Below, one piece after another: positions 1 through 16,629 of a stretch of 64,000 nucleotides of DNA. Origin of the DNA: Gammaproteobacteria bacterium (lineage in GTDB: Bacteria > Pseudomonadota > Gammaproteobacteria > QZLD01). Made by a program: the position numbers and the translations under genes. Position 1 is the stretch's first letter; each line of letters starts with the position of its first letter. Under the pieces are notes generated by a model that worked only from the letters and a program-made list of their open reading frames with translations, had not been told where the DNA came from and searched no databases. The DNA lies in NCBI GenBank assembly GCA_033852135.1, contig JAWSVB010000022.1, positions 101,936 through 165,935 of the forward strand, given 5' to 3'.

Positions 1-2496
1 AAAATATTAGAGCCACAAAAAATTGGAGAGAATGGGTATTTTTTTATATTTAAAAGTGATGGGTATTTGTTGCTACACCCAGTGCTTGCAGGACAAAATG
101 GGAGTAAATTAATAAATCCTGTATCAGGTAACAGTATGTTAATTGATATGAAAAATGCAGCAATGTCTAATGAAAGACTATTGAAATATATATGGGATAG
201 GCCAGATGATAAGGGCAACTATCGTTATAAGAAAAAAGCTTTCCTAGCGTATTACCAGCCACTTGATTGGTATGTGGTGACCTCAGTTTACAATGATGAT
301 ATCGATTTATTAACATCAACTTTAGTTACAAGCGCTAAGGTAATTTTCTTTATTTCAATTTTAGTATCATTAATTCTTTCGCTACTTTTAATTAGAAGCA
401 TTACTAAACCCCTTAACGATTTAGTAGGAGCAATATCTGGTACTGACAATACAGGGGTTCCTACCGTTGAAATCCCAGAGGGAAACCTGGAAGAGATTAA
501 AGTTTTAAGTCGCACTATGAACTTAATGATATCAAGGATTAAAGAATATCAAATTAACTTTATAGATAGTGAATTAAAATTTAAGAGTTTGGTTGAATCT
601 GTAACAGATTTAATTTGGGAACTAGATAAAGATGGTAACTATGTATATATAAGCCCAAGAATTTATGATTTATTAGGCTATACACCTGAAGAAGTAATTG
701 GGAATAGCCCTATGATGTTTATGGATTCAGAAGAAACCCAAGCTATTTCTCCATTTTTAGAACAGATATTTGCAGATGGAAAAGGGTTTCAGAATTTAGA
801 AAGCAAATGTTTTCATAAGGATGGGACGCCGCGTACTATTGAAGTATCAGCTGCCCCATTTTTTAATGATAAAGGTGAATTACAGGGTTTAAGGGGGGTT
901 ACCCGCGATATAACAGAAAAAATAAAAGTTGCCAGAGAGCTACATGAAAGTGAGGAAAAGTTTAAGTTGCTTGCAGATCAAATGTTGCTCGGAATTCTAA
1001 TTGTTAAAGATGGGCTGTATAAATATTATAACGATGCGGTACTGGAGATATTTGGTACAACTAAACAACAAATGGACTCATTAGGCCCTTATGATCTTCA
1101 AACCTTAATTCACCCTGATGATAGGGCGTTTGTAATGGACCAGTTAAAGAAAAAGGAAAGAGGGCATAAAGACATAGTAATTAATTACGATTGGCGCCTT
1201 ATGTCTAGTAATGGCAAGACTAAATGGGTTGAGTCCTGGTCTAAAACTATAGATTTTGATGGAGAGACAGCTGATTTTGTACTTTTGTACGATATAACCG
1301 AGAGAAAAGACGCAGAGAATGAAGTTACACATTTAAGAAACTATCTCTCCAATGTGATTAACTCAATGCCATCGATATTAGTTGGAGTTGATGTTGAGGG
1401 TAAGATTACTCAGTGGAATAAAACAGCGGTAGACCGGACTAATTTGTGTGCTGAAAAAGTTATGGGTAAACATTTAAGCCAAGTATTGCCTAACTTAAAA
1501 CCAGTGTTTAAAAAGATAGAGCAGAGTATTAAAGCAAATAAATCAGTGCAGACAAAAATATCATATCAAACCAAAGAAAGTAACAGTGTGGTACAAGAGG
1601 TAACAGTATACCCGCTAGAAGCGGATGGAGTTGAAGGAGCCGTAATTCGTATTGACGATATTTCAGAAAAAGTACGTATGCAGGAGATGATGATACAAAG
1701 TGAAAAGATGCTCTCTATTGCCGGGCTTGCTGCAGGAATGGCTCATGAGATAAATAATCCTTTGGCAGGAATGATGCAAACTGCCAGTGTTATGTCTAAC
1801 CGCCTTATAAAAAAAGTAGATATGCCAGCAAATAATGATGCTGCAGAGCACGCAGGAACTACGGTTGATGCAATAAAGCAGTTTATGGATGAGCGTGATA
1901 TCCCTCGTATGATTAACGCAATAAACGAGTCGGGAAAAAGGGCTGCGATTATTGTTAATAATATGCTTAATTTTGCTCGCAAGGATGATGGTGGAGTAAT
2001 AGCTTCGCAAATAAATGAAATAATCCGTGTTTCGATTGAGCTGGCCGAAACAGATTACAACATGAAAAAACGTTATGATTTTAAGAAGGTATCTATAGAT
2101 ACTGAGTTCGGCCAAAATCTTCCTGATCTTTACTGTGACCAAGCTCAAATCCAGCAAGTGATTTTTAATCTTTTGCGTAATAGCGCTCAAGCAATGCAAG
2201 AAGCACAAATAGAATCACCACAAGTGCGCATTCGAACTAGCTTTAATAGTGACAACAACAAAGTGTTGATTGAACTATTTGATAATGGTCCAGGTATGGC
2301 AGAGGAGGTTCGTAAAAGAGTATTCGAACCTTTCTTTACCACTAAACCTACAGGTATCGGAACAGGGCTAGGTCTAAGCGTATCGTATTACATCATCGTC
2401 GAAGAGCATGGAGGGGAGATGTATTTAGACTCCGCACCAGGTGCTGGGACTAAATTCACAATAGCTTTACCGCTTGATAGAGGGGAAAGTTCATGA
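1..2496 (+). CDS. Sensor histidine kinase, 5'-truncated at window edge (Cache-like periplasmic end, TM, HAMP, 3x PAS, HisKA, HATPase)
   Basis: Frame 1 is open from nt 1 with no stop before the listed ORF at 67 ('KILEPQKIGENGYFFIFKSDGYLLLHP' is Cache-like), so the gene starts upstream of the window. TM segment 'VIFFISILVSLILSLLLI'; H-box 'SEKMLSIAGLAAGMAHEINNPLAGM'; G1/G2 ATPase motifs 'DNGPGM...GIGTGLGLS'. Confidence 0.85.
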   Translation, partial: KILEPQKIGENGYFFIFKSDGYLLLHPVLAGQNGSKLINPVSGNSMLIDMKNAAMSNERLLKYIWDRPDDKGNYRYKKKAFLAYYQPLDWYVVTSVYNDDIDLLTSTLVTSAKVIFFISILVSLILSLLLIRSITKPLNDLVGAISGTDNTGVPTVEIPEGNLEEIKVLSRTMNLMISRIKEYQINFIDSELKFKSLVESVTDLIWELDKDGNYVYISPRIYDLLGYTPEEVIGNSPMMFMDSEETQAISPFLEQIFADGKGFQNLESKCFHKDGTPRTIEVSAAPFFNDKGELQGLRGVTRDITEKIKVARELHESEEKFKLLADQMLLGILIVKDGLYKYYNDAVLEIFGTTKQQMDSLGPYDLQTLIHPDDRAFVMDQLKKKERGHKDIVINYDWRLMSSNGKTKWVESWSKTIDFDGETADFVLLYDITERKDAENEVTHLRNYLSNVINSMPSILVGVDVEGKITQWNKTAVDRTNLCAEKVMGKHLSQVLPNLKPVFKKIEQSIKANKSVQTKISYQTKESNSVVQEVTVYPLEADGVEGAVIRIDDISEKVRMQEMMIQSEKMLSIAGLAAGMAHEINNPLAGMMQTASVMSNRLIKKVDMPANNDAAEHAGTTVDAIKQFMDERDIPRMINAINESGKRAAIIVNNMLNFARKDDGGVIASQINEIIRVSIELAETDYNMKKRYDFKKVSIDTEFGQNLPDLYCDQAQIQQVIFNLLRNSAQAMQEAQIESPQVRIRTSFNSDNNKVLIELFDNGPGMAEEVRKRVFEPFFTTKPTGIGTGLGLSVSYYIIVEEHGGEMYLDSAPGAGTKFTIALPLDRGESS

Positions 2497-2511
2497 TGGG
2501 GCAGGCGCAGT

Positions 2512-2883
2512 ATGAATAATTCAATTTTAATTGTTGATGATGAACTTTTTATTCGGCAAAGTCTGAATGATTTTTTTAAAGATAGTCAATGGATTACATT
2601 CATAGCAAGCAGTGGAGAGGAAGCTTTAGAAATTCTTGAGCAGGAGAGCCCTTCTGCAGCAATTGTAGATATAAGAATGATGGGAATGAATGGTGATGAA
2701 TTTATTCGGCAAGCAAGAGATGTAAAACCGGAAATGTGTTTTGTGATATGTACAGGGTCACCTGAATATAAACCATCGTATGACCTTCTTCAGCTATCAC
2801 AAGTGTCAGAACAAATATATAGAAAACCGATTGATGATATGGAAAATCTGGAAAACCATATATCAAGTTTAATTAGTAATTAA
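2512..2883 (+). CDS. Single-domain response regulator (CheY-like receiver only)
   Basis: 'ILIVDDE' acidic pair, phospho-acceptor Asp in 'AIVDIRMMGMNG', 'CTGS' and 'YRKP' Lys. No output domain. Starts 16 nt after the HK1 stop. Confidence 0.85.
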   Translation: MNNSILIVDDELFIRQSLNDFFKDSQWITFIASSGEEALEILEQESPSAAIVDIRMMGMNGDEFIRQARDVKPEMCFVICTGSPEYKPSYDLLQLSQVSEQIYRKPIDDMENLENHISSLISN

Positions 2884-2910
2884 CATGAACAGTTATTAAG
2901 CCTTTTTATA

Positions 2911-2980
2911 GGTTAGATAGGTTAGATAGGTTAGATAGGTTGGATGGGTTAGATAGGTTGGATGGGTTAGATAGGTTAGA
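2911..2980. repeat. Tandem 9-bp repeat, about 7.8 copies (GGTTAGATA / GGTTGGATG variants)
   Basis: Direct reading gives GGTTAGATA x3, GGTTGGATG, GGTTAGATA, GGTTGGATG, GGTTAGATA, then a partial GGTTAGA. Lies between the receiver stop (2883) and the HK2 start (3003). Confidence 0.95.
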
Positions 2981-3002
2981 AGTTAAGTAGGTAAATTAAA
3001 AC

Positions 3003-5375
3003 ATGATTTTAAGGCGTAAAGTAAATATAAGGAACTCAGTAGCAACCAGGTTGTTAAAGGTTGTGTTCTGTTTTTATATTGCATTTGCTCTTTTAGTCAC
3101 TCTTTCCCACATGTTTATTGAATATAGCTATCAGAAAGGAGATGTAAATAAATCGTTAGTTGAATTCCAGCCAACTATCGAATCAACTCTTGCAATGAAT
3201 TTATGGCATATGGATGACCAATCACTTAAATCAACAATAGATAGCATCATTAAAATCCCTTTAATAGTTGGTATTAAGATAAAAGATGAATCAAAAAATA
3301 TAATTGCAGTTGATGGAGTAGTTTCTGAAGCTGATTTTTCTGGAAAGATTGAACAAGATATTGATTTTCTAGGGTTAAAGAGCAATATAAATGACTTACA
3401 AACTAATTCATATAATCTTGAAGTTTTCCAACATACATTTCCAATTTACTATAGATATAAAGGGCAACAAAGACTATTAGGTGAAGTAACACTCTTTTCT
3501 AACTCATCGGTTATTTTTGATAGAGTAAAAGTTCAGTTCTTACTTTTGGTAATAAATTCAGTACTTAAATCGTTAGCTCTGTGGGTGTTTTTCCTACTTA
3601 TATCAAACTATATATTGCGTCGCCCATTAGAATCAATTGCGGAGGCGGCTGAAAATATCAGTGTGGAAAACCTTAGTGATTTTAAAATTAAAATAAAGTC
3701 TGCAGGAAACGATGAATTAAGCGTTATAGAAAATTCATTTAATGAAATGATAAAAAAACTCTCAGATTCTATAAATAAACAGAAGGGGGCAGAACAAAAT
3801 TTAAGAGAAAATGAGATTAAATTTAGAACGCTTGTAGAGAATGTTCCCGGAGTAACTTATCGTTGTATTAATGATGAACCTTGGACAATGATATACCTAA
3901 GTGATGAGATAGAAAACTTATCAGGCTACCAACGTTCAGATTTTATAAATAATAATAAACGTACATTTGCATCAATAATTCATATTGAGGACACCACCTT
4001 CATTTCAAAAGCAGCAGAAAAAGCTATTAAGAATAGAACAACTTATTCATTTGAATATCGCATAGTTCGTGCAAATGGTGAAATTCGCTGGGTATATGAA
4101 AAGGGACAGCCAATATTTGATGAGAACGGTGAATTACAGTTTTTTGATGGTGTTATTATCGATATTACCGAAAGAAAACAAGCTGAAAGTGAGATAAGAA
4201 AACTACGAAAGTACCTTACAAACATTATTGACTCAATGCCTTCATCCTTAGTTGGTGTAGATGAAAGTCTAAAAATAACACAATGGAATAAAACCATTGA
4301 AGATACGACAGGGATTGCCGCAGTAGATGCATATGGAAAATCAATAGAAGATATTTTACCGCAAATGCAATCTGAGTTAGGGAAAATATCATGTAGCCTG
4401 CATACCCGAACAGTACAACGTAATCAGATAAAAAGAGGGGTAGATGAGACCGGCATATGTTATGAAGACGTCACCATTTATCCCTTAATTGCAAACGGGG
4501 TTAAGGGTGCAGTTATTCGCATAGATGACATTACCGAAAAAGTAAGGATGGAAGAGATACTGATTCAGAGTGAAAAAATGCTTTCAGTTGGAGGTTTAGC
4601 CGCAGGGATGGCTCATGAGATAAACAATCCATTAGCAGGCATGGTGCAAACAGTAAATGTGATGTCAAACAGGTTGATTGAAAAATCAGATATGCCAGCC
4701 AATATAGAAGCAGCTAAAGAAGCTGGAACAACCATAGAAGCAATCAATAAATTTATGCATATTCGTGATATTCCGCGGATGATTGCTACTATAAATGAAT
4801 CTGGCAAAAGAGCATCAGCCATAGTTAACAATATGCTCAGTTTTGCTCGCAAAGGGAGCAGTGAAAAAGCAACAGTGAACTACATAGAGTTAGTTGATAA
4901 TACGATTGATTTGGCAGTGACAGATTACAACCTTAAGAGTAACTATGACTTTAAACAAGTTGACGTTATTAGAGAATATAAAGATAAAACTGTATTTATT
5001 GAATGTGAACCATCACAGATTCAGCAAGTTATATTAAATCTAATTCGAAATGCTGCTCAAGCAATGCAGGATGCCAAAATACCATCTCCAAAATTGACCG
5101 TTCGTATCAGCCACGATAAAGACACAGCAATGGTTAAAACTGAGATAGAAGATAATGGACCAGGTATAGATAAAGAGACATTAAAACGGATCTTTGAACC
5201 TTTTTATACGACAAAACCAGTAGGTGTGGGAACAGGACTAGGGTTGAGCGTTTCATATTTCATCATAGCTGATAATCATAATGGAGAGATGCATGTTGAG
5301 TCTGTATCAGGCCAAGGTACGAGATTTACAATAAGTTTGCCTGTTAACAGCATAAAACAACAAATAGGTGTATAA
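3003..5375 (+). CDS. Sensor histidine kinase (2 TM periplasmic sensor, HAMP, PAS x2, HisKA, HATPase); paralog of HK1
   Basis: TM 'VVFCFYIAFALLVTLSHMFI' and 'LALWVFFLLISNYIL'. HAMP-like 'RRPLESIAEAAENIS'. H-box 'SEKMLSVGGLAAGMAHEINNPLAGMVQT'. 'DNGPGI...GVGTGLGLS'. Confidence 0.88.
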   Translation: MILRRKVNIRNSVATRLLKVVFCFYIAFALLVTLSHMFIEYSYQKGDVNKSLVEFQPTIESTLAMNLWHMDDQSLKSTIDSIIKIPLIVGIKIKDESKNIIAVDGVVSEADFSGKIEQDIDFLGLKSNINDLQTNSYNLEVFQHTFPIYYRYKGQQRLLGEVTLFSNSSVIFDRVKVQFLLLVINSVLKSLALWVFFLLISNYILRRPLESIAEAAENISVENLSDFKIKIKSAGNDELSVIENSFNEMIKKLSDSINKQKGAEQNLRENEIKFRTLVENVPGVTYRCINDEPWTMIYLSDEIENLSGYQRSDFINNNKRTFASIIHIEDTTFISKAAEKAIKNRTTYSFEYRIVRANGEIRWVYEKGQPIFDENGELQFFDGVIIDITERKQAESEIRKLRKYLTNIIDSMPSSLVGVDESLKITQWNKTIEDTTGIAAVDAYGKSIEDILPQMQSELGKISCSLHTRTVQRNQIKRGVDETGICYEDVTIYPLIANGVKGAVIRIDDITEKVRMEEILIQSEKMLSVGGLAAGMAHEINNPLAGMVQTVNVMSNRLIEKSDMPANIEAAKEAGTTIEAINKFMHIRDIPRMIATINESGKRASAIVNNMLSFARKGSSEKATVNYIELVDNTIDLAVTDYNLKSNYDFKQVDVIREYKDKTVFIECEPSQIQQVILNLIRNAAQAMQDAKIPSPKLTVRISHDKDTAMVKTEIEDNGPGIDKETLKRIFEPFYTTKPVGVGTGLGLSVSYFIIADNHNGEMHVESVSGQGTRFTISLPVNSIKQQIGV

Positions 5376-5408
5376 CATAAATAATGAGCATATATCTTTA
5401 AATATTCT

Positions 5409-5426
5409 ACAGTTATAACTGTAGGC
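5409..5426. promoter_or_regulatory. Perfect 18-bp palindrome CTACAGTTATAACTGTAG (candidate operator, or weak terminator without a T-run)
   Basis: Seen directly, 34 nt after the HK2 stop and about 135 nt upstream of the MEDS-like gene. Confidence 0.5.
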
Positions 5427-5563
5427 CTATTTGAGTTTTTAGTGTTGATGAATGGACAGGCACTAATGAAAGATTAACCGTTTAACTGTTGGTTAGTCGC
5501 TAGAGATACTGTGTATTTAATAGCAGCTGGTATGTGAACAGTTGCTATGTGGGAGGAGAGATT

Positions 5564-6184
5564 ATGAATGATAATCATCAAAAAATCTCACTGGGTTTTG
5601 TGAAAGAAAAAGTAGATGTAGGAACTCATCTATGTCTTGTATTTACCGATAAAAAGGAAAGAGTTGATTCTTTGTTAAAATTTATTTTAGCAGGGATGGC
5701 AGATAATGAGCGCACAGCATGTTTTTCTGAAGTTATAACTGAAGCAGAGATAACAGAGTTTTTTAAACTAAATAATATCTCCTACGATGAACGTAAATCC
5801 AAGCAAGCAATAACCTTTGGTCGTACTAGTGATGTCTATTTTCAAGACAATACTTTTGACCCAGAAAGAATGCTTGGAATCTTAGAACAATTCTATACAG
5901 ATGCGATAGAAATGGGGTTTAGCGCCTCAAGAGTAATTGGAGAGATGTCTCCGAAGATACAAGATGTCACTGGCGGTGAGAGATTGCTGGAATACGAATC
6001 AAGAGTTACTAAATTACTTGAAAAGAGCCCGATAACAGCTGTTTGCCAATATGATGCAAATCAATTTGATGGAGCGACGATTATGGATGTATTGAAAGTG
6101 CACCCAAAGATGATTGTTAATGGCGTAGTTGTTGAAAATCCATTTTTTATAAAACCCGATGAATTTCTTGAAAATATCAAGTAA
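5564..6184 (+). CDS. Small cytoplasmic sensory-domain protein, possibly MEDS family (DcmR-like)
   Basis: ATG at 5564 follows a strong RBS GGGAGGAGAG (the listed ORF starts at 5534 with no RBS). About 206 aa, no TM. The motifs 'HLCLVF' and 'AVCQYD' recall MEDS domains as I remember them. The protein sits directly upstream of the soluble kinase HK3. The family assignment is from memory and not verified. Confidence 0.4.
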   Translation: MNDNHQKISLGFVKEKVDVGTHLCLVFTDKKERVDSLLKFILAGMADNERTACFSEVITEAEITEFFKLNNISYDERKSKQAITFGRTSDVYFQDNTFDPERMLGILEQFYTDAIEMGFSASRVIGEMSPKIQDVTGGERLLEYESRVTKLLEKSPITAVCQYDANQFDGATIMDVLKVHPKMIVNGVVVENPFFIKPDEFLENIK

Positions 6185-6200
6185 AAGGCATAGTTAGCAT

Positions 6201-7898
6201 ATGAGCTTTGAGGATGGTCTTTCAGCTAAAGTAATTGGGCAGATTGCAATGATGCAAGGTGTTGTAGCACAGCTGCCAGATGAGGTTTCTGTACTTGGTT
6301 TTGTTGCTAAAGGGTTATCCGATATTCCAGGTGTGAAAAAGGTAGATTATGTCTTATTCAATGATGAAGAAACATCAGTATTAGAATATGAAACAGAAGA
6401 ACTAAGGCACATATTTCCAATTGAATATAAGCAATCAAAATACTCATCATTAATATTTCACCTATCTGATAGATCTAAATTTGACCTGTATGCCCCTTAT
6501 ATCGGTAATTTTACCAATGTACTAGCAGTACTGTTTGAGGAGAGGCGTCAGCGCAAATCTAATGAGGCATTGTTAGAAAATCTTGAAGAGTTGGTGGATG
6601 AAAGAACAAAAGAGTTAAAACAAGAGATTGCTGAACGTAAAAATGCAGAGGCTGAGTTAGAGAGAACAAAAGACTACATATCAAATGTAATCGACTCTAT
6701 GCCATCTGCTCTAATATCAGTAAATGAAAACCTTGAAGTAACGCAATGGAATTTAAAAGCGGAGGAGATTACAGGGGTGCCAGCCCCAGATGCTTTTGGG
6801 ATGAAGCTGGATGATGTTTTTCCGCGCATGGGAAAAGAGCTGGAATTAATATCAAACAGTATACAAAACAAAGAGATAAAATTTGAGCAGAAAACAGCAT
6901 ACGAAGCAGAATCAGGTGTAGGTTATGAAGATATAACAATTTACCCTTTAGTAGCGATTGGGATTCAAGGTGCTGTTTTACGTATAGATGATGTCACCAG
7001 TAAAGTGCGTATGGAAGAGATGCTGGTACAAAGTGAGAAGATGCTCTCAATCGGAGGGCTTGCCGCAGGAATGGCGCATGAAATTAACAATCCATTAGCT
7101 GGGATGATGCAAACAGCAAATGTAATGCAAAATCGTTTAGTCGATAATGTTGATATTCCAGCAAATAGAAGAGCGGCAGAGGAGATTGGTGTGGATCTTG
7201 AAGCGATTGTTGGCTTTATGTCGGCTAGAGGAATTCCGCGCATGATACACGCGATAAAAGAGTCTGGTGTAAGGGTAGCTTCAATAGTCAATAATATGCT
7301 GCATTTTGCACAACAATCAGATGATGAAATTAATACAAGTAAAATTGCAGATATAATCGAGAACACTATTGGTTTAGTTTCTACAGATTACAATCTAAAG
7401 AAACAGTACGATTTTAAAAAAATTAATATTATTCGGGAGTTTCAAGAAGATCTACCTGAAATTGAGTGCCACTCATCCAAAATTCAACAGGCCATGTTGA
7501 ATCTATTTAGCAATAGTGCACATGCACTGCAACAAGCTAAAATTGAAAATCCAAAAATAATAATAAGATTAGCGATAGATGAGAAGCAAGATGATAAAGA
7601 TGCAATGGTACGGGTTGAGATTGAAGATAATGGCCCAGGTATTTCCAGTAAGTTAATAGGTAGATTATTCGAACCATTTTATACAACAAAACCTACAGGT
7701 GAGGGAAAAGGGTTAGGTTTAAGTGTTGCATATTTCATAATTACTGAAACTCATAAAGGAAAGATGTGGGTAGAGTCTAATGAGGGGGTAGGCACTAAAT
7801 TCATAATATGTTTGCCAGTAAAGCAAAATGGTAGCGATATAAGTATCGATAGAAATGTAGATAAAAATTCTATAAATTCAATGGATAACAAAGGTTAA
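6201..7898 (+). CDS. Soluble (no TM) histidine kinase: N-terminal domain, coiled coil, PAS, HisKA, HATPase; paralog of HK1/2/4
   Basis: Coiled coil 'LEELVDERTKELKQEIAERKNAEAELERTKDY'. H-box 'SEKMLSIGGLAAGMAHEINNPLAGMMQT'. 'DNGPGIS...GEGKGLGLS'. Confidence 0.88.
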   Translation: MSFEDGLSAKVIGQIAMMQGVVAQLPDEVSVLGFVAKGLSDIPGVKKVDYVLFNDEETSVLEYETEELRHIFPIEYKQSKYSSLIFHLSDRSKFDLYAPYIGNFTNVLAVLFEERRQRKSNEALLENLEELVDERTKELKQEIAERKNAEAELERTKDYISNVIDSMPSALISVNENLEVTQWNLKAEEITGVPAPDAFGMKLDDVFPRMGKELELISNSIQNKEIKFEQKTAYEAESGVGYEDITIYPLVAIGIQGAVLRIDDVTSKVRMEEMLVQSEKMLSIGGLAAGMAHEINNPLAGMMQTANVMQNRLVDNVDIPANRRAAEEIGVDLEAIVGFMSARGIPRMIHAIKESGVRVASIVNNMLHFAQQSDDEINTSKIADIIENTIGLVSTDYNLKKQYDFKKINIIREFQEDLPEIECHSSKIQQAMLNLFSNSAHALQQAKIENPKIIIRLAIDEKQDDKDAMVRVEIEDNGPGISSKLIGRLFEPFYTTKPTGEGKGLGLSVAYFIITETHKGKMWVESNEGVGTKFIICLPVKQNGSDISIDRNVDKNSINSMDNKG

Positions 7899-7903
7899 GT
7901 TAT

Positions 7904-9058
7904 ATGATTAAACTATTTAAAATAATAGCTGTTTTATCATTGTTAGCATTAATCGTAATACTGAATATGCAATCTGCATCTACTGTAAAGATTGGATTAG
8001 TTGCAGATTTAAGTAGTAGAAAAGCCAACCTTGGTGATTCTGTAAGAAATGGGCTGATTCTCGCGATAAATGAGATAAATCAACAAGGCGGTATAAATGG
8101 TCACAAGGTTGAATTATTAGTTCGAGATGGTAAATCTAACGAAGCTATTACCCAGCAACAAGCAACTAATTTAGTTGATAACTGTGTAAATCTAATAGTT
8201 GGACCTGTGCACAGTGCAATGGCAAATTCAGTAATAGAAGCGACTAAAGAAGCAGGTATATTGGTTATAAGTCCAACAGTTTCAACTGATAACCTCTCCG
8301 AAATTGATGATAACTTTTTCCGCATAAATACCAAATCATCCATTCAAGGTAATGACCTTGCAAGAGCATCAAAACTTAGGGGCGATAAGAAAGTATTATT
8401 GGTAGTGGACCAAGATAATAGTGAGTATACCGGGTCAGTAGCTCATGGTTTTAGAGAGAGAGCAAAACTACTGGATTTAGAAGTCATCGGTGAAATAGCT
8501 TTTACTAAGGAGCACGATACTACTAAATTGGTAGATAAAATCATCCAATACAAGGCTGATGCATTAGTCTTTATAACTAATGGCAAAGATGCAGCAAAAA
8601 TTATCCAGCTATATAACAAAGTTAGCAAACTACCAAACTTATATGGTGATATGTGGGCGAAGTGGAGCAATGTTAAAGAGTTTGGAGGTAAAGCTGTAAA
8701 TGGGATGGTTTTAGTTGGCATTAATAAGAATAAACAGAGCCAAGATAAAGAGGTGCAATTTGCCTCATCCTATAAACAGCTTTTTGGTTCAGAGTATACG
8801 ATACCAGCGGTTTATGCGTATGAGGCTGTACAATTATATGCTTTAGGTGCACAAAATGCCTCTAGCTTGGATAGCGATAAAATTAAACAATATATTTTGA
8901 AAATAGAGCAAATAGATGGAGTGGTGGATAACTATAAACTTGATATGTATGGTGATGCAATTCGAGAGTTTTCATATTTCCAAATTAAAGATAATAGATA
9001 TGAAAAGATAAATTTACCCAAAGAGTTACCTATAAAAATAGATAGTGTTAAAGAGTAG
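7904..9058 (+). CDS. Periplasmic binding protein, LivK/Leu-Ile-Val-binding family (Peripla_BP_6-like), signal peptide
   Basis: Signal peptide 'MIKLFKIIAVLSLLALIVILN'. 'VKIGLVADLSSRK...GINGHKVELLVRDGKSN' is typical of type I PBPs. No ABC permease or ATPase genes nearby. Confidence 0.75.
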   Translation: MIKLFKIIAVLSLLALIVILNMQSASTVKIGLVADLSSRKANLGDSVRNGLILAINEINQQGGINGHKVELLVRDGKSNEAITQQQATNLVDNCVNLIVGPVHSAMANSVIEATKEAGILVISPTVSTDNLSEIDDNFFRINTKSSIQGNDLARASKLRGDKKVLLVVDQDNSEYTGSVAHGFRERAKLLDLEVIGEIAFTKEHDTTKLVDKIIQYKADALVFITNGKDAAKIIQLYNKVSKLPNLYGDMWAKWSNVKEFGGKAVNGMVLVGINKNKQSQDKEVQFASSYKQLFGSEYTIPAVYAYEAVQLYALGAQNASSLDSDKIKQYILKIEQIDGVVDNYKLDMYGDAIREFSYFQIKDNRYEKINLPKELPIKIDSVKE

Positions 9059-10222
9059 ATGGTTAAAAATATGAATAATTATAAAACAGGAACAAAAAGA
9101 TTAATCAGAGCTGGAGCAATAATTGTTTTGCTAGCATTGGTTACTTGGCTATTACTATCCCTACTAATTTTAAAAGAGCCGGTAAAAATAGGTTTTTTAG
9201 CAGATTTAAGTACCAGAAAATCGCAGCTAGGTGTTGTGGCAAGAAACGGTGTGATTATGGCCGTAGATGAATTAAATGACAGAGGTGGAATAAACGGTAG
9301 AAAAGTTGAGCTTATTATTAGAGATATAAAATCAAGTAAAGATGAGGCAAAGCTTCAAACGTTAAAATTAATTGAAGATGGGGTAGATGTGATAATCGGA
9401 GGGTTTGTTAGCTCAATGGCCGCTCCTGTTCTTGAAGCTACAAAGAATAGTAATATCTTGCTAATAAGTCCTACAGTTGCAGCTGATAGTTTGTCAGGAA
9501 TTGATGATAATTTTATTCGGATTACCCCACAAGCATCAAAACATGGTAGTTCGCTTGCTGAGGCAGCTGGGTATATGGGAATTAAAAAAGTTACTTTGAT
9601 TCGCGATATCAAAAATGAAGAGTACTCAGGGGCTGTAGTTGATGGGTTTAAGAAAAAATGTGAAGAACAATCTATTCAAGTTATTGGTGATCTAGAGTTT
9701 GAAACCAAGCAAGACTTCCCTCAACTTGTTGAGCAATTGTCTAAGCTGCAGTCAGATGCTTTGGTATTTATCACCAGTGGAATCGATGCCGGTGCGATTA
9801 TTCAGCAATATGCTAGAAATAATAATGTTCCACATCTATTTGGCAGCATGTGGACAAAAGTTACAAAAGTAAATGAGTATGGTGGAAAAGCAGTAAATGG
9901 AATGTTTCTGGTAGATGTTTTTGCGAATAAAAATCCAGAAGTTAAAGAAGTAGAGTTTAATAAATCTTTCAAAGAGCGTTTTGGAATGGGATCAAATATG
10001 CCATCAAGGTATACATATGAATCTGTAAAGCTATTTGCTCAAGCTGCTGAGAAAGCAAATAGTGTAAAAACTGAAAAAGTAAAAACTGAAATTATTAATA
10101 TGAACCCTGTTGAGGGGATAACAGATAACTATCAGATTGATAAATATGGTGATGTTATTCGTGAACTATCCCTTTATCAGATTAAAAATCACCAGTACGA
10201 GTTGACTAATAAAACGAACTAA
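9059..10222 (+). CDS. Second LivK-type periplasmic binding protein (tandem paralog), N-terminal membrane anchor or signal
   Basis: 'VKIGFLADLSTRKSQLGVVARNGVIMAVDELNDRGGINGRKVELIIRDIKSS' is parallel to the upstream PBP. Hydrophobic N-terminus 'AIIVLLALVTWLLLSLLIL'. Confidence 0.75.
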   Translation: MVKNMNNYKTGTKRLIRAGAIIVLLALVTWLLLSLLILKEPVKIGFLADLSTRKSQLGVVARNGVIMAVDELNDRGGINGRKVELIIRDIKSSKDEAKLQTLKLIEDGVDVIIGGFVSSMAAPVLEATKNSNILLISPTVAADSLSGIDDNFIRITPQASKHGSSLAEAAGYMGIKKVTLIRDIKNEEYSGAVVDGFKKKCEEQSIQVIGDLEFETKQDFPQLVEQLSKLQSDALVFITSGIDAGAIIQQYARNNNVPHLFGSMWTKVTKVNEYGGKAVNGMFLVDVFANKNPEVKEVEFNKSFKERFGMGSNMPSRYTYESVKLFAQAAEKANSVKTEKVKTEIINMNPVEGITDNYQIDKYGDVIRELSLYQIKNHQYELTNKTN

Positions 10223-10342
10223 TACAAATAGCTAATTAATAAAAAGTGCAATAAATAGGATATATGTAAATGCAGAAAAAAATCAGTAAAGAAATGAACC
10301 AACAATACAAAAAGGTTGCGTTTAAATAGCAGGTTTTATGTA

Positions 10343-12601
10343 ATGGTTAATTTCTTTCATAACATAAGCATTCAAAGGTTTTTCAAGATTTATCTCTTGA
10401 TTGCTGTGTTATTACCGTTATTGGTTCTTGGCTTGGTAGGATTGACAATATCATCAAGCTTATTAAGGCATGAGATATTAAACGCAGATCATAGGCAGGT
10501 ACACCTTGCTGAATATGCTATCGAGCAGCACCTCCAAAGACCACTTGAGGATCTTCAGGTTATATCAAGCCTAATTCATAATATTTCAAAATCACAGCCA
10601 TCAAGAATCCAGAGAATTATCGAAAAAACTCAAGATGCGCATAGATATTTTGCAGCTATTCAAGTTGTTGATATTGATGGTCGAGTAATTGCTATATCCC
10701 CATTAAATAAAGATTTGATGGGTATTGATGTATCAGGACACAGATACTTCAATAAAATTAAAAGTTTAAATACTCCGTATTGGGGGGCATCATTTATATC
10801 GGAGCAGTTAGAGTTACCACTCGCATCACTAAGTATAAAAACAGATTATGGCTTTATTATCACAGGTTTTCTCAGATTAGATGATATTAGTGAAATCGGT
10901 AAAGGTAGGAGACAAGAAGAAACTAGTAATAATGATATTGATTCACGATTGTTGTTTATCACAGACCAGAATGGGGTATTTATTGCACACCCAGACAAAC
11001 AAAAAGTTATGATTCGTGAATATGACCAACAATATGCAAAAAGTATTAAGCAGTGGAATAGTGATATTTTAGTTAGTGAGGCTGAATATAATGAGCGTGA
11101 ATTCTTAGTAAATACGGTTATTATGCCAGAGACAAAATGGAAAATATCACTATATACTCCACTTGAAAATATCACTTCTCCAATTATAAAAACGGCAGTT
11201 ATATTACTGCTTTTAACTCTAGCAGTTACCGTATTAGCAATTATTGGCGGAGCAAAACTCAGTAGTAAAATATCTGGCTCTTTCAGTGAGTTGCTTAAGT
11301 CAGTAGATGCTATCGGCAAAGGGAAGTATGAAGTACCAATATCTCAAAGTAATTATAGAGAGTTTAACCAGCTTGCTGATTCATTTGAACAGATGGCACA
11401 AGAGGTAAAAGCAAGGGAGAAAGACCTCAAGGAAGCAGAGAGCTATATCTCCAATATTATTAATTCCATGCCATCAATATTGGTAAGTGTGAACAGAGAT
11501 CTAATAATTACGCAGTGGAACATGACTGCAAAAGATAAAACAGGGGTTGAGGCAGAAGATGCAAAAGGGAAAAATCTAGTGGAGCTTTTGCCTAATTTGC
11601 AGTCAGAAATCAGTAAAATAGAGAGCAGCATAGAAAGTCGGCAAGTTAAATATAGCAGGAAAAAGCCACTTTATTCTGAGAGCAATGTAAGCTACGAGGA
11701 TATAACAATTTTTCCACTAATAGCTAACGGAGTACAAGGAGCTGTTATTCGTGTTGATGATGTTACGGATAAAGTTCGTCTTGAAGAGATGCTGGTACAA
11801 AATGAGAAAATGTTATCCATTGGTGGGTTGGCAGCTGGTATGGCGCATGAAATCAATAATCCGCTAGCAGGGATGATGCAAACAGCAGATGTTATTCAGA
11901 ATCGTTTAGTAAATAAAATTGATTTGCCAGCAAATAAAAAAGCAGCAGAAGAAGCAGGTATTACTATTGAAGGGGTTTCTAAATTTATACATGCCAGAGA
12001 TATTCCTCGTATGATTGAAACAATAAAAGAGTCTGGTAAACGTGCGGCTACTATCGTTAATAATATGCTCACATTTGCACGTAAGGCAGACCACAGTAAA
12101 TCAAAGGTAAATGTAGAGCGTTTATTAGAAGACACATTAGATCTAGCAATAACCGATTACAATTTAGAAAAAGAGCATGATTTTAAACAGATAAAAATCA
12201 TAAAAGAGTTTGAATCTAGCTTGCCATTATTGCTATGTGAAGAAACTAAAATTCAGCAGGTGATTTTAAATTTACTGCTCAACAGTGCCCAAGCAATATT
12301 TGGCAGCAGTATAAAAGCACCTGTAATTCATATCCGTACAAGTCTGTCTAAAGATAGCAAAATTATTAATATCGAGATTGAAGATAATGGCCCGGGGATG
12401 GATAACGAAACAAGTAAAAGAATATTTGAACCGTTTTTTACAACAAAAGATGTTGGTCAAGGGACAGGTTTAGGTTTAAGTGTTTCATATTTTATTGTTA
12501 CAGAGAATCATGGTGGTGAGATGAGTGTTACATCAAAGACAGGGGAAGGCACTAAGTTTTTAATATCCCTGCCAGTAGAAGGAAACAAAAATGAATACTA
12601 G
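10343..12601 (+). CDS. Sensor histidine kinase with ~250-aa Cache-like periplasmic domain, TM, HAMP, PAS, HisKA, HATPase (paralog HK4)
   Basis: ATG at 10343 (the listed ORF uses an in-frame TTG at 10316). TM1 'IYLLIAVLLPLLVLGLVGLTI', TM2 'AVILLLLTLAVTVLAIIGG'. H-box 'NEKMLSIGGLAAGMAHEINNPLAGMMQT'. 'DNGPGM...GQGTGLGLS'. Confidence 0.85.
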   Translation: MVNFFHNISIQRFFKIYLLIAVLLPLLVLGLVGLTISSSLLRHEILNADHRQVHLAEYAIEQHLQRPLEDLQVISSLIHNISKSQPSRIQRIIEKTQDAHRYFAAIQVVDIDGRVIAISPLNKDLMGIDVSGHRYFNKIKSLNTPYWGASFISEQLELPLASLSIKTDYGFIITGFLRLDDISEIGKGRRQEETSNNDIDSRLLFITDQNGVFIAHPDKQKVMIREYDQQYAKSIKQWNSDILVSEAEYNEREFLVNTVIMPETKWKISLYTPLENITSPIIKTAVILLLLTLAVTVLAIIGGAKLSSKISGSFSELLKSVDAIGKGKYEVPISQSNYREFNQLADSFEQMAQEVKAREKDLKEAESYISNIINSMPSILVSVNRDLIITQWNMTAKDKTGVEAEDAKGKNLVELLPNLQSEISKIESSIESRQVKYSRKKPLYSESNVSYEDITIFPLIANGVQGAVIRVDDVTDKVRLEEMLVQNEKMLSIGGLAAGMAHEINNPLAGMMQTADVIQNRLVNKIDLPANKKAAEEAGITIEGVSKFIHARDIPRMIETIKESGKRAATIVNNMLTFARKADHSKSKVNVERLLEDTLDLAITDYNLEKEHDFKQIKIIKEFESSLPLLLCEETKIQQVILNLLLNSAQAIFGSSIKAPVIHIRTSLSKDSKIINIEIEDNGPGMDNETSKRIFEPFFTTKDVGQGTGLGLSVSYFIVTENHGGEMSVTSKTGEGTKFLISLPVEGNKNEY

Positions 12602-12968
12602 TAATAAAAGCGTTTTGATTTTAGATGATGAACCGTTTGTAAGGGATAGTCTTGTAGATTATTTTGAAGATTGCCTTTGGACCGTATTTTGTTCTGGGCA
12701 GGAGGATGAGGCGCTAGATATTATAAAAAACTATAAAATAGATTGTGCCATAGTGGATATTCGAATGGCAGGTATTGGTGGGGACCAATTTATTCGTGAA
12801 GCGAATAAACTGCCCAATAAAATTGGATTTGTAGTTTGTACCGGTTCTCCTGAGTATGAAATTCCAGCTGATTTAGCCGCATTAGAAAATGTTTCAAATA
12901 CTATTTTTAGTAAACCTGTGACAGAGCTAAATAAATTAGAGCAAGAATTACTGAAGTTAGCAGGATAA
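12591..12968 (+). CDS. Single-domain response regulator (receiver only), translationally coupled to HK4
   Basis: ATG overlaps the HK4 stop (ATGAATACTAG). 'VLILDDEP', 'AIVDIRMAGIGG', 'CTGS', 'FSKP'. Paralog of the receiver at 2512. Confidence 0.85.
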   Translation: MNTSNKSVLILDDEPFVRDSLVDYFEDCLWTVFCSGQEDEALDIIKNYKIDCAIVDIRMAGIGGDQFIREANKLPNKIGFVVCTGSPEYEIPADLAALENVSNTIFSKPVTELNKLEQELLKLAG

Positions 12969-13044
12969 ATGTCAGTTTTTCTAATAAACTTAAATATATA
13001 TGATTATTACTATTCATAAAAAGTATATCGAGTAACGGTGGGTC

Positions 13045-14352
13045 ATGAGTGATACTCAAATTACAGTGCTAGCAATTGATGATGATGAATACATCAGGCA
13101 AAGTTATATCGATTGTTTGGAAGACTATGAATACAAAGTATTTATAGCTGAAAATGGCAGAGTTGGTTTAGAGCTTTTTGAACAGCACATTGATGAAATT
13201 GATATCGTAATTGTTGACCTAAGAATGCCAGAGGTTGATGGCTTTCAAGTAGTTGCACATGTGAAAAAAAGTAAGCCAGAGCTACCAATAATTGTAGTTT
13301 CCGGTAATGGAGTAATAAGTGATGCAGTTGAGGCTCTTCATCAAGGAGCGTGGGATTACTTGCTAAAACCGATAGAAGATTTTTCTGTATTGATTCACTC
13401 TGTAAATAGCTGCTTGGATAAGGCGCGTCTTATTAATGAGAATGCAGAGTATCAACTCCATCTGGAAAGTATGGTTGCAGATAGAACTAATGAATTATTT
13501 GAAGCAAATATTGAGCTGAAAAGGCATAAAAGTCACCTGCAAGAGCTGGTTGAAGAGAGAACATCAAAATTAAATGAATCATTAGAAAATCTAAATAATA
13601 CAAAAGATTATTTAATCCAATCTGAAAAAATGGCAGCCCTAGGTGGTTTGGTTGCTGGTGTTGCGCATGAGATTAATACTCCAGTTGGGATTGGTGTAAC
13701 GGCTGCCTCACACCTCGAAGGTGAGACCAGAAAGTTTACTAAAGCCTATGAAAACGGCGAACTAACCAGAAAGGCGTTAGATAGCTATGTGAAAATAGTA
13801 AATGAAAGTTGTGGAATGATTCTGTCCAATATGAATCGTGCTGCAGACTTAATCCATAGCTTCAAGCAAGTTGCAGTTGACCAATCTAGCCAAGAAAATC
13901 GTGAGTTTAATGTTAAAAAGTATTTGCATGAGATCTTTGCAAGCCTGAATCCAAAGTTTAAGAATACCAGTTTAACTATCAATGTAGAGTGCGCAGATGA
14001 CCTGACCATTAACTCCTACCCTGGGACTATGTCTCAGATTATCACCAACCTTGCCTTAAACTCCCTTATCCATGGCTTTGAAGATAAAGAAAATGGAACT
14101 ATAGATTTAAAAGTTGTGAAAGAAAATGGAAATATTAAGATAAATTATTCAGATACCGGCCACGGAATATCAGAAGAAAATTTAACTAAAATATTCGACC
14201 CATTTTTCACAACTAAGAGGGGTTATGGGGGGAGTGGACTTGGCTTACATATAGTTTTCAATTTGGTCACCCAAACCCTTGGTGGAAGTATTGAATGCAA
14301 TTCGAAAGAGGGTGAAGGGGCTGAGTTCATTATTGAATTTCCATACTCTTAG
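13045..14352 (+). CDS. Hybrid response regulator-histidine kinase (N-terminal receiver, coiled coil, HisKA of a different subfamily, HATPase)
   Basis: Receiver 'VLAIDDDEYIRQ...IVIVDLRMPEVDG...VVSGNG...LLKP'. H-box 'SEKMAALGGLVAGVAHEINTPVGIG'. 'DTGHGI...GGSGLGLHIV'. Confidence 0.85.
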   Translation: MSDTQITVLAIDDDEYIRQSYIDCLEDYEYKVFIAENGRVGLELFEQHIDEIDIVIVDLRMPEVDGFQVVAHVKKSKPELPIIVVSGNGVISDAVEALHQGAWDYLLKPIEDFSVLIHSVNSCLDKARLINENAEYQLHLESMVADRTNELFEANIELKRHKSHLQELVEERTSKLNESLENLNNTKDYLIQSEKMAALGGLVAGVAHEINTPVGIGVTAASHLEGETRKFTKAYENGELTRKALDSYVKIVNESCGMILSNMNRAADLIHSFKQVAVDQSSQENREFNVKKYLHEIFASLNPKFKNTSLTINVECADDLTINSYPGTMSQIITNLALNSLIHGFEDKENGTIDLKVVKENGNIKINYSDTGHGISEENLTKIFDPFFTTKRGYGGSGLGLHIVFNLVTQTLGGSIECNSKEGEGAEFIIEFPYS

Positions 14353-14442
14353 TACCCGCCAGAACATATAAAAAAATCAACCTTGTATTCTCGATTTAAA
14401 TAGCTAATTTTAAGGTTAAAACTACTAAGTAGAGTAAATATT

Positions 14443-15165
14443 GTGTGGAGTCAGACAAATTTAGGTAGATACATAATAGATCTTGAATCCGAAAAGATTA
14501 ATCAAATTATTAATCGAGTTCCTGGTGTTAACATACTACAGCTGGGTACATTAAGAGGGACAAAGTGGCTAAATCTAAATCGTAAATTTCAAAGCTATAT
14601 TCTAGATACCCCCGCTCGATGTGGCTCAGATTGTAATGTCTTTGGGGAGTTAGAATCATTACCTTTCTCTTCTGAAAGCATGGATGTGGTTATTCTCAGG
14701 CACACACTTGAAGCAACAACAAACCCGCAAACTGTTCTGCATGAGGCAGAACGAATACTATCTCCAGATGGTTATTTAGTTATTTTAGGTTTTAACCCTT
14801 ATAGTTTTTTTGGGGCGCTACGCTTTGCAGAAAAGTATACAGAAACCGGGGAGTGGGAAGGGGAATCACTCTCAATAGGACGGATTAAAGATTGGTTTGC
14901 AGTTCTAGGTTTGGATGTAACAGAAGAGGAAAAGGTAAAACTTAGCCATAGAGTGATAAAGGAAGAATATGGGAAAAAATTTGAATTTCTAGGAGAGCTG
15001 GCAGATTACAGCCTGCATATTCAATCAGGAGTTTATATCCTGATGGCAAGAAAGAGGATAATCCCCTTATCCCGTGTAAAAAATGGCTGGCGTGAAAAAG
15101 GTAATAGGGTAAGTTCACCAATTCAGGCAAGCCCAAAAGTAAACCGAAAACTATTTAAGGAATAA
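14443..15165 (+). CDS. Class I SAM-dependent methyltransferase (conserved neighbour of rnhA in many gammaproteobacteria)
   Basis: GTG start. 'DTPARCGSD...MDVVILRHTLEATTNPQTVLHEAERILSPDGYLVILGFNP' is a Methyltransf_11-like core. Position immediately upstream of rnhA. Confidence 0.65.
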   Translation: MWSQTNLGRYIIDLESEKINQIINRVPGVNILQLGTLRGTKWLNLNRKFQSYILDTPARCGSDCNVFGELESLPFSSESMDVVILRHTLEATTNPQTVLHEAERILSPDGYLVILGFNPYSFFGALRFAEKYTETGEWEGESLSIGRIKDWFAVLGLDVTEEEKVKLSHRVIKEEYGKKFEFLGELADYSLHIQSGVYILMARKRIIPLSRVKNGWREKGNRVSSPIQASPKVNRKLFKE

Positions 15166-15387
15166 TTTTTCTTAACCCTTAGCTCGCCAATAGAACTTAA
15201 AAATTTAAGCTTTTAAATAGGAGTTATCTTTCTGTATAAGGGTTGTATAGCGATGTTTTTAGGTGCTTTGCAATATTACCTATAGTCAGTATGGATCGTG
15301 TTTAATCACAGATAACATTGCTTGCATGATGGAATTCATTACAATGACTATGCTTGAAAATTTAGTTTTCTGTGGAATGGTAAATAA

Positions 15388-15831
15388 ATGACAAATACTG
15401 TAGAAATTTTCGCTGATGGTGCATGTAGAGGTAACCCAGGTCCTGGTGGCTGGGGTGCATTATTACGTTTTAATGATAATGAAAAAGAGCTCTATGGAGC
15501 AGAAGCAGATACAACCAATAACCGTATGGAATTAACTGCTGTAATCAAGTCGCTAGAGTCCTTAACGAGGCCTTGTGAGATAGTTGTTACCTTAGATTCA
15601 AAATATGTTCTGGATGGAATACAAAGCTGGATAGAGAACTGGAAGAAGCGTGGTTGGAAAACAGCGGCAAAGAAACCAGTAAAAAATGAAGATCTATGGA
15701 GGCAGCTTGATGCTCTAAAACAGGAGCATAAAATCACCTGGAACTGGGTAAAAGGTCATAGTGGACATGATGAAAATGAGAGGGCTGACCAACTAGCTAA
15801 TAAAGGGATAGACGAGATGCTAGGCTCGTAA
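15388..15831 (+). CDS. rnhA: Ribonuclease HI
   Basis: '[22 protein letters not shown]...[17 protein letters not shown]...[14 protein letters not shown]' are canonical RNase H motifs. Confidence 0.95.
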
Positions 15832-15915
15832 ATAGTATTGCATCCAAATTTCGACAAGTTAACAAGCAGCAGTTAGAATATTCGTAATAAATTAAAATAG
15901 GCAAACTCAGTAACC

Positions 15916-16629
15916 ATGAGACAAATCGTACTAGATACAGAAACTACCGGGCTTGAGCCATCTGAAGGGCATAGAATCATTGAGATTGGTTGTGTCGAAA
16001 TGTTGAGTCGCCGCGTTACTGGTAATAACTTTCACGTTTATATAAATCCACAGCGTGAAGTTGAGCAAGAGGCGATAGAGGTTCATGGAATAACAAATGA
16101 GTTTCTGAACGATAAGCCATTATTTGCCGATATTGCTGATGAGTTTATCGAGTTTATAGATGGTGCTCAGTTAATTATCCATAATGCACCATTTGATGTT
16201 GGTTTTATCAACCACGAGTTCAACCTATTAAATTCTGGTAAAGGTGTAGTTGAAGATTATTCAACCGTACTCGATACACTAGCAATGGCTAGAAAAAAAT
16301 TCCCAGGGCAAAAAAATAACCTAGACGCCCTATGTCGTCGCTACGAGATAGATAATTCAAGGCGGACACTTCATGGAGCGTTACTTGATTCGGAGATTCT
16401 AGCCGACGTATATTTGATAATGACTGGCGGCCAAGTGAGTTTGTCGCTAGCATCTGATGGCTCTGATGAGAACGAAGATGGTGAACATGTTGAAAATTAC
16501 ACCCCAATAAACCGCGAAGGGCGCAGTTTTGCAAAAGTTAGCGCAACAGCATCAGAGTTAGAACTGCATGAAACAAACTTAGATTTAATTGCTAAAAAAT
16601 GTAATGGAACGCCAGTCTGGAGAAGGTAG
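15916..16629 (+). CDS. dnaQ: DNA polymerase III epsilon subunit (3'-5' proofreading exonuclease)
   Basis: Exo I 'IVLDTETTGL', Exo II 'LIIHNAPFDVGFIN', Exo III 'HGALLDSEILADVYL'. Confidence 0.95.
   Translation: MRQIVLDTETTGLEPSEGHRIIEIGCVEMLSRRVTGNNFHVYINPQREVEQEAIEVHGITNEFLNDKPLFADIADEFIEFIDGAQLIIHNAPFDVGFINHEFNLLNSGKGVVEDYSTVLDTLAMARKKFPGQKNNLDALCRRYEIDNSRRTLHGALLDSEILADVYLIMTGGQVSLSLASDGSDENEDGEHVENYTPINREGRSFAKVSATASELELHETNLDLIAKKCNGTPVWRR

Follow-up and report, generated by a model that had tools for sequence, protein, structure and literature searches.

An island of four paralogous PAS histidine kinases with differing inputs, small receivers and a MEDS–GAF-like pair in a gammaproteobacterial genome

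Introduction

How are four closely related histidine kinases (HKs), encoded side by side and fitted with different sensor ends, connected to one another, and where would their signals go? The question is raised by a 64,000-nucleotide stretch of DNA (the window) from a gammaproteobacterium (assembly GCA_033852135.1, contig JAWSVB010000022.1, positions 101,936 to 165,935 of the forward strand), whose positions 1–14352 hold an island of ten consecutive open reading frames (ORFs) on the plus strand: HK1, REC1, HK2, MEDS, HK3, PBP1, PBP2, HK4, REC2 and REC-HK, where REC stands for receiver and PBP for periplasmic binding protein. A first-pass annotation, made from the sequence alone, had listed these genes in the right order and with the right domains, as judged by Pfam, and had miscounted them as nine. 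Its description is partly confirmed here, being largely right with one edge artefact and two mislabels, and its interpretation, a duplicated multi-input network funnelling into one or two small receivers, is partly supported. On balance we think it probable that the island is a lineage-specific two-component array, in which one NtrB/AtoS-like core, present in four copies with different portable inputs, feeds a cassette of kinase, receiver and receiver-effector.

Results

One kinase core in four copies

Over about 400 C-terminal residues, HK1, HK2, HK3 and HK4 are 51–58% identical to one another (pairwise BLASTP). Each matches HisKA and HATPase_c in Pfam, the H-box AGMAHEINNPLAGM is invariant across the four, and all of them carry an insert of ∼25 residues in the loop of the dimerization and histidine phosphotransfer (DHp) domain. 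By domain criteria, these four proteins and the REC-HK hybrid are classed as HisKA-type two-component histidine kinases. The motif that had been quoted as evidence of a 'near-identical core' is present, and near-identity is confined to the two DHp helices (83% and 74%, compared to 47% in the PAS domain and 50% in the catalytic and ATP-binding (CA) domain of the alignment). The nearest relatives of HK1–4 are each other, with the exception of their orthologues in a Gammaproteobacteria metagenome-assembled genome (MAG; L008), in which all four copies are already present, and of one metagenome kinase (L088). The proposed duplication is thus upheld, the kinases being clearly related, and the comparisons support a lineage-specific expansion of one core with differing sensor ends, derived most likely by local duplication.

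No NCBIfam model attains its cut-off for any island protein. The best match of HK1–4, the AtoS equivalog, was rejected at 194–252 bits (cut-off 646), as was the NR(II)/NtrB equivalog at 92–105 bits (cut-off 240), and by these scores the four kinases are relatives of the AtoS and NtrB families, not orthologues.

Two short Logan contigs match the DNA of the window at 100% identity. The gene order of the island is retained in full in a MAG contig of a sister strain (L001, GCA_041156845.1; 94–99% nucleotide identity) and in L008 (81–84%), and the complete arrangement was found only in the same species (L001, with partial copies in L002 and L003) and in this one close relative. Relative to L001, positions 1–2935 (HK1–REC1) are 94.0% identical and positions 2953–16145 are 98.8% identical, and the spacer between REC1 and HK2 differs by 45 bp; the lower identity hints that the HK1 end of the island has recombined or has diverged faster.

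That the sensor ends of the kinases differ, as had been noted, is confirmed. HK1 (1–2496, +) consists of sCache_2/dCache_2, one transmembrane (TM) segment, three PAS domains, HisKA and HATPase_c (Pfam); frame 1 is open from window base 1, which places the 5' end of the gene outside the window, and the full-length protein has 1089 aa in L001. HK2 (3003–5375, +), which has no adjoining receiver gene, has two TM segments around a periplasmic domain of ∼130 aa that matches CHASE5 weakly; HAMP, two PAS domains and the island-type DHp-CA come after it (Pfam, hydropathy). HK4 (10316–12601, +, with a start codon that is uncertain by a few codons) likewise has two TM segments, here around dCache_1 (41.9 bits, E 1e-10, below the 45-bit cut-off), then HAMP, PAS and the island-type DHp-CA (Pfam, hydropathy). 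HK3 (6201–7898, +) has no TM segment by hydropathy and had been taken for a bare cytoplasmic kinase; instead, its first ∼140 aa (6201–6620, +) form a GAF-like domain that ends in a long signalling helix and precedes PAS and the island-type DHp-CA.

MEDS and its GAF-like partner domain

MEDS proteins have been predicted to sense simple hydrocarbon derivatives since 2005. The stand-alone protein encoded 16 bp ahead of HK3 (5564–6184, +; 206 aa), for which a MEDS-like identity had been proposed, matches PF14417 over the full length of the model (positions 1–161 of 161; 130.3 bits with a cut-off of 29.8, E 7e-38). The mechanical ORF opens at 5534; the start is probably at 5564, because an identical database protein (P0001) has 206 aa.

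The subfamily of ∼205 aa to which this protein belongs is 55–65% identical across very distant bacteria, and it has a constant companion. At 79 of 80 genome loci, MEDS is followed on the same strand, at a median spacing of 6 nt, by a gene for a transducer that shares homology over its first ∼140 residues with residues 1–140 of HK3, and at the exceptional locus (L042) only ∼300 bp of sequence remain past the MEDS gene. The pairs occur in at least 13 phyla, spread over Desulfobacterota, three proteobacterial classes, Planctomycetota, Verrucomicrobiota, Chloroflexota, Spirochaetota, Bacteroidota, Fibrobacterota, Acidobacteriota, Myxococcota, Omnitrophota and Latescibacterota, and no third conserved gene accompanies them in the genome loci examined. 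What follows the GAF-like domain varies: Pfam scans of subsets of 70 partner proteins revealed PAS-kinases, kinase–receiver hybrids, PAS-GGDEF-EAL proteins and HD-GYP proteins. One Propionivibrio sp. MAG has two MEDS–partner pairs, the partner being a kinase with two receivers in one (L062) and PAS-GGDEF-EAL in the other (L068; Pfam). In the complete genome of Thiospirochaeta perfilievii (CP035807.1), gene calling splits the partner into two ORFs of 160 and 371 aa (L005, 10630–12212), and a near-identical JGI contig has a single partner gene of 527 aa (L004, 10630–12213), pointing to a possible frameshift or sequencing error in what would otherwise be a suitable cultured host for experiments. 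On plasmid p1 of Caballeronia sp. Lep1P3 (L171, 3959–6253), a distant MEDS protein (30% identity) is separated by a 310-bp gap from a 443-aa hybrid kinase/response regulator; it is thus not only in the subfamily of the window that MEDS is found beside a kinase.

Word-indexed searches for homologues of the N-terminal domain of HK3 found none with the single sequence and two with a 76-sequence profile, apparently a limit of the method; an exhaustive HMMER search gave 482 clusters (at 50% identity). Among the 150 HMMER matches listed, almost all have the domain at the N-terminus, with one listed exception, P0266, a protein of 830 aa that combines MEDS (23–183), the GAF-like domain (215–340), PAS, kinase and receiver. 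As a Rosetta-stone fusion, which might also be an artefact of gene calling or a frameshift, P0266 supports a direct functional link between the two partners.

Neither residues 1–140 of HK3 nor the same region of 17 homologues match a Pfam family, and it is from predicted structure that a GAF fold was recognised. The MEDS model has a KaiC/RecA-like fold with the RecA-like core, and the AlphaFold models of both MEDS and the GAF-like domain are confident; a PDB sequence search with the MEDS profile gave no meaningful match, leaving fold comparison as the informative approach. No Walker A P-loop (GxxxxGK[ST]) occurs anywhere in the MEDS protein, in which a strand at 22–27 (HLCLVF) is followed by TDKKE and then by a helix in place of the P-loop, in agreement with the label 'iKaiC' that has been given to MEDS (PMC5847659). 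In a 20-sequence alignment, H22, C24, C161 and H180 are invariant and C53 is present in at least 90% of the sequences.

The closest characterised system to MEDS–HK3 is EtnR2/EtnR1 of Mycolicibacterium chubuense NBB4, in which the gene for EtnR2, a stand-alone MEDS protein, lies 10 bp ahead of that for EtnR1 (GAF with a CdaR/PucR helix-turn-helix (HTH) domain); cells need both proteins in order to respond to ethylene oxide (bioRxiv 10.1101/2024.02.19.581074). EtnR2 resembles the MEDS protein of the window over its full length (tblastn 26.8% identity, E 9e-23; hhalign with the MEDS family 99.8%, 188 aligned columns) and keeps the H22, C24, C53, GEM, YES, C161 and H180-P motif of the window's MEDS family, and the two gene pairs have the same layout, with a MEDS protein of ∼200 aa followed on the same strand within ∼10–16 bp by a GAF-type transducer. 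They differ in output (a CdaR/PucR HTH domain in EtnR1, a histidine kinase here and GGDEF-EAL or HD-GYP elsewhere), in the position of the GAF-like domain, which is at the extreme N-terminus of HK3, and in surroundings, as alkene/epoxide catabolic genes are absent near MEDS–HK3. By analogy, MEDS–HK3 would work like EtnR2/EtnR1 without being its orthologue. In the literature searched, the EtnR2/EtnR1 study alone tests sensing by MEDS directly, and none gives a mechanism. The MEDS and GAF-like pair is thus a widespread, uncharacterised form of a known kind of two-protein sensor.

In KaiC–SasA, too, the N-terminal domain of a histidine kinase reads a KaiC-fold protein, with these differences: MEDS is a single-domain protein lacking Walker A, its partner domain in HK3 is GAF-like whereas that of SasA is KaiB/thioredoxin-like, and the island has neither KaiA nor KaiB.

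The core of HK3 has the H-box of the island type (AHEINNPL) and most partner kinases elsewhere have one of the AHDFNN type; this difference suggests that the local core had the input pair grafted onto it. It is quite possible, if short of probable, that MEDS and the GAF-like domain make up a portable cytoplasmic sensor of two proteins, found in at least 13 phyla, in which the His/Cys-lined former nucleotide site detects an electrophile, a redox change or a metabolite and relays the signal, through direct contact, to a reduced GAF domain, which drives whatever output is fused to it (kinase, GGDEF-EAL or HD-GYP), and that in this island the pair was joined to the resident kinase core as one of four inputs.

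Two binding proteins beside HK4

PBP1 (7904–9058, +) starts 5 bp after HK3 and is a LivJ-like Peripla_BP_6 protein with an N-terminal segment that resembles a signal peptide (Pfam, hydropathy); PBP2 (9059–10222, +), with no gap to PBP1, is also Peripla_BP_6 and has a hydrophobic N-terminal anchor (Pfam, BLASTP, hydropathy). The two are 47% identical (BLASTP), and hydropathy plots show a hydrophobic N-terminus in both. They had been called orphans, a label that the neighbourhoods of their homologues do not sustain: at two unrelated loci, a metagenome contig (L116) and an Anaeromyxobacter MAG (L073), a PBP homologue overlaps by 4 bp the gene for an HK4-type dCache kinase, the periplasmic N-termini of this kinase and of HK4 being homologous. 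Because this pairing recurs, the PBPs belong with HK4 in a LuxP/LuxQ-like manner. LuxP–LuxQ, TorT–TorS and ChvE–VirA are sensor kinases assisted by PBPs, and they share with the island the placing of secreted binding proteins beside a kinase that has a periplasmic Cache or tandem-PAS-like domain. The island PBPs differ in being LivJ-like Peripla_BP_6 proteins, duplicated, and translationally coupled to the preceding HK3. By gene pairing, PBP1/PBP2 and HK4 are classed as a putative PBP-dependent sensor kinase of the LuxPQ/TorTS type.

Receivers, the REC-HK hybrid and a recurring cassette

REC1 (2512–2883, +; 123 aa, 15 bp after HK1; Pfam, alignment) and REC2 (12591–12968, +; 125 aa, overlapping the HK4 stop by 11 nt; Pfam) are the two bare receivers that had been reported: both are single-domain proteins with the canonical residues. 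They are 45% identical (BLASTP), and D9, D10, D53, the T/S before G82 and K105 are kept in REC1, in REC2 and in the receiver of the hybrid (alignment with Pfam Response_reg). In NCBIfam, REC1 also weakly matches the DVU0259/DivK-like family.

The last gene of the island, REC-HK (13045–14352, +), encodes 435 aa with an RssB-like receiver, a coiled linker, DHp and CA (Pfam, NCBIfam, sequence). It is 27–30% identical to HK1–4 (BLASTP). Its HisKA match is weak (E 0.007, 16.8 bits with a cut-off of 26.9), and it keeps the H-box AGVAHEINTPVG as well as intact N, G1, F and G2 boxes in the CA domain (DTGHG, FDPFFTTK, GGSGLGL). A sensorless REC-HisKA-HATPase protein encoded downstream of a PAS kinase is also found in LvrA/LvrB of Leptospira, which differs from the island in that a single receiver gene here stands between kinase and hybrid; as REC-HK scores 88 bits with the NCBIfam model hybrid_RR_LvrB, far under the 500-bit cut-off, it is not an orthologue of LvrB.

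A metagenome scan with an alignment of the four cores detected >555 relatives of HK1–4, and the neighbourhoods of 80 loci were studied. They reveal a recurrent cassette, consisting of a kinase of this family, often a single receiver of ∼125–145 aa, and then a receiver-effector. Kinase, optional single receiver and REC-kinase hybrid follow one another in at least seven unrelated contigs, and REC-HK is the final gene of the cassette elsewhere, as it is here. The effector is REC-HK in L108, L110, L120, L122 and L123, a SpoIIE/PP2C phosphatase in L118, L133, L134, L137, L148 and L165, HD-GYP in L104 and L109, and a sigma-54 activator in L132 and L160. The single-receiver subfamily of REC1 and REC2 follows the kinase in 20 of the 80 loci (27–44% identity, with the motifs DDE...ED.G, D.R.PG.DG, TGS and KP in common with REC1/REC2). 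The kinase–receiver cassette is common, not universal. By its gene content, one metagenome contig (L109, 5825–16143) is an independent case of a kinase array ahead of predicted cyclic-di-GMP phosphodiesterases, in which two REC-HD-GYP genes come after a tandem run of three Cache-PAS kinases belonging to the family.

Among known systems with many kinases, those around Bacillus KinA–E/Spo0F, Caulobacter MrrA and Pseudomonas GacS resemble the island in having multiple kinases with differing inputs beside stand-alone receivers, and this precedent makes many-to-one integration plausible (PMC5964349, PMC5812489). The island differs from these hubs in the absence of an Hpt or Spo0B-like protein, in kinases that are tandem paralogues and not dispersed, and in the terminal REC-kinase hybrid. 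Pfam found no Hpt domain in 1–14352, and a multi-step phosphorelay of the Spo0F type was rejected, as no Hpt/Spo0B-like phosphotransferase lies between two receivers of the island. Also rejected were a chemosensory pathway (no CheA, CheW or MCP domains in the island or its flanks) and a quorum-sensing operon (no LuxU or autoinducer synthase genes present). Given the known multikinase networks, receiver hubs, PBP-assisted kinases and pairs of the EtnR2/EtnR1 type, the statement that the island is not recognisable as a described system overstates its novelty; by gene content, the island is assembled from known cassette types that recur in many other bacteria.

An HD-GYP gene upstream and other genes of the window

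It had been claimed that the island lacks any DNA-binding or enzymatic output domain. This holds inside the window only, and the absence is an edge artefact, because in L001 and L008, the two relatives on which this placement rests, a REC-DUF3369-HD-GYP gene of the same orientation precedes HK1 by ∼130 bp. The protein, of 524 aa, keeps its HD and GYP motifs intact and is a predicted cyclic-di-GMP phosphodiesterase. In this it resembles RpfC–RpfG and other pathways from a kinase to REC-HD-GYP, as do the kinases of the family that precede REC-HD-GYP in L104 and L109; it differs in lying outside the window, in the subfamily of its receiver and in the additional DUF3369.

The remainder of the window has a high density of cyclic-di-GMP and two-component genes. 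The sole Hpt domain near the island is in an Hpt-HD-GYP (HD_5) fusion (24112–25278, −), which could be a direct link of phosphorelays to cyclic-di-GMP hydrolysis and which adjoins a gene for a Ser/Thr protein kinase (Pkinase; 25428–26294, −). A stand-alone HD-GYP gene (27708–28703, +), a REC-GGDEF-EAL gene (31445–33292, +), a HAMP-PAS-PAS hybrid kinase gene (42975–46508, +) and a GAF-GGDEF gene (46586–48253, −) follow. These four are possible off-island targets of the orphan kinases or of the REC-kinase hybrid.

A gene for a class I S-adenosylmethionine (SAM) methyltransferase (14443–15165, +) lies 90 bp past REC-HK and is retained in L001 and L008; elsewhere, its sole other match, in L127, does not adjoin the cassette, and the gene probably does not belong to the signalling unit. 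An Rfam scan found three tRNAs only and no riboswitch near the island. Over the whole window (1–64000) GC content is ∼36%, GC skew is positive in nearly all 2-kb bins with the cumulative skew climbing throughout, and large genes are mostly on the plus strand, which fits a leading-strand segment with neither origin nor terminus inside.

Discussion

Built on the gene content of the island, the paralogy of its kinases, the recurrence of the cassette and the MEDS and GAF-like folds, the reading that we prefer would run as follows. In a low-GC gammaproteobacterial lineage, a PAS-DHp-CA core would have been duplicated four times, each copy gaining its own input module: a periplasmic sCache/dCache domain with three PAS domains for HK1; a small periplasmic domain with a TM segment on either side for HK2; a cytoplasmic two-protein sensor for HK3, whose GAF-like N-terminus would read the inactivated KaiC/RecA-fold MEDS protein; and a dCache domain aided by two secreted LivJ-like binding proteins for HK4. 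HK1 would pair with REC1 and HK4 with REC2, and the REC-kinase hybrid, in the usual position of the cassette effector, would act as a second-tier kinase. The upstream REC-DUF3369-HD-GYP protein is a second candidate effector, which would couple the array to the breakdown of cyclic-di-GMP. From the sequence, it is reasonable to propose a multi-input array that feeds a second-tier REC-kinase as well as small receivers.

Several observations count against it. A receiver gene adjoins the kinase in only ∼28 of the 62 family kinases with enough downstream sequence. The scan for promoters and terminators yielded nothing exceeding shuffled expectation and no intergenic sites that would define operons. 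The HD-GYP gene is adjacent to HK1 only in close relatives, outside the window, and its receiver belongs to a different subfamily from that of the usual receiver-effectors following this kinase family. The GAF-like domain has no sequence homology to EtnR1 (hhalign probability 0.3%). DHp helix-1, at 83% identity within the island, is only moderately above the family-background median of 70%, itself inflated by the search patterns; strong DHp conservation was therefore rejected as proof of a shared phosphotransfer specificity, which is not established by so modest a difference. Finally, every phosphotransfer step in this scheme is one that we infer, as are the sharing of receivers by the four kinases, the binding of MEDS to the GAF-like domain and the ligand of each sensor.

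The main rival, which we consider unlikely without dismissing it, is that co-located but insulated pathways (HK1–REC1; HK4–REC2–REC-HK with the PBPs; and an independent MEDS–HK3) were joined by tandem duplication and do not integrate signals, HK2 and HK3 signalling to regulators elsewhere, for example the REC-GGDEF-EAL protein encoded at 31445–33292. Paralogous kinases normally diverge in specificity after duplication, and these duplications are old, judging from the 51–58% identity and the four copies in L008. Insulation also accords with DHp identity little above the family background, with gaps of 76–188 bp between sub-units, which are compatible with separate transcription units, and with the further output-bearing regulators inside the same window. 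However, REC1 and REC2, at 45% identity, belong to one subfamily, the DHp helices are the most conserved part of the HK paralogues, HK2 and HK3 lack an adjoining receiver of their own, and tandem arrays of family kinases ahead of shared receiver-effectors recur, as in L109.

An array feeding its cassette through the single receivers, as we prefer, would also be wrong if these receivers were phosphate sinks or DivK-like allosteric modulators that adjust the neighbouring kinases and the REC-kinase hybrid, and the sensor kinases phosphorylated the hybrid or the HD-GYP regulator directly, which seems to us improbable. CheY-type sinks and DivK are precedents for receivers that are not intermediates. 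The MrrA hub is a further precedent (PMC5964349). Such a role would suit the 16 of 62 family loci that pass from kinase to receiver-effector without a single receiver, the weak DVU0259/DivK-like match of REC1, and the want of an Hpt/Spo0B-like phosphotransferase in the island, by which a receiver-to-receiver relay would miss its usual middle component. On the other hand, sequence alone does not separate a sink from an intermediate, and the DHp domain of the hybrid could, by analogy, itself serve as the phosphotransferase, as Spo0B and ChpT do.

That MEDS is not a ligand sensor, and is instead a constitutive scaffold, a Sda/KipI-like anti-kinase or an oligomeric KaiC-like platform whose own abundance or modification sets the activity of HK3, is very doubtful: the KaiC/RecA-like fold is typical of oligomeric platforms, KaiC offers a precedent in controlling the SasA kinase by protein–protein contact, and no MEDS protein of the window's subfamily has a known ligand, but the strictly conserved His, Cys and Glu residues lie on β-strands that run into the former nucleotide site (in predicted secondary structure only), and the same residues are found in EtnR2, mediator of an epoxide response, which argues for a conserved binding or reactive site.

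A lineage-specific array of duplicated kinases feeding the cassette thus remains our preferred account, and as a whole the island is an ordinary, if large, two-component array, of interest for how duplicated kinases diverge or stay cross-wired. Its least ordinary part is the MEDS and GAF-like pair, which is worth following up. The pair occurs in cultured organisms, Thiospirochaeta perfilievii and Marinilabilia rubra among them, and lends itself to clean experiments on the ligand of MEDS and on the control of a kinase or a cyclic-di-GMP enzyme by an inactivated KaiC-like fold.

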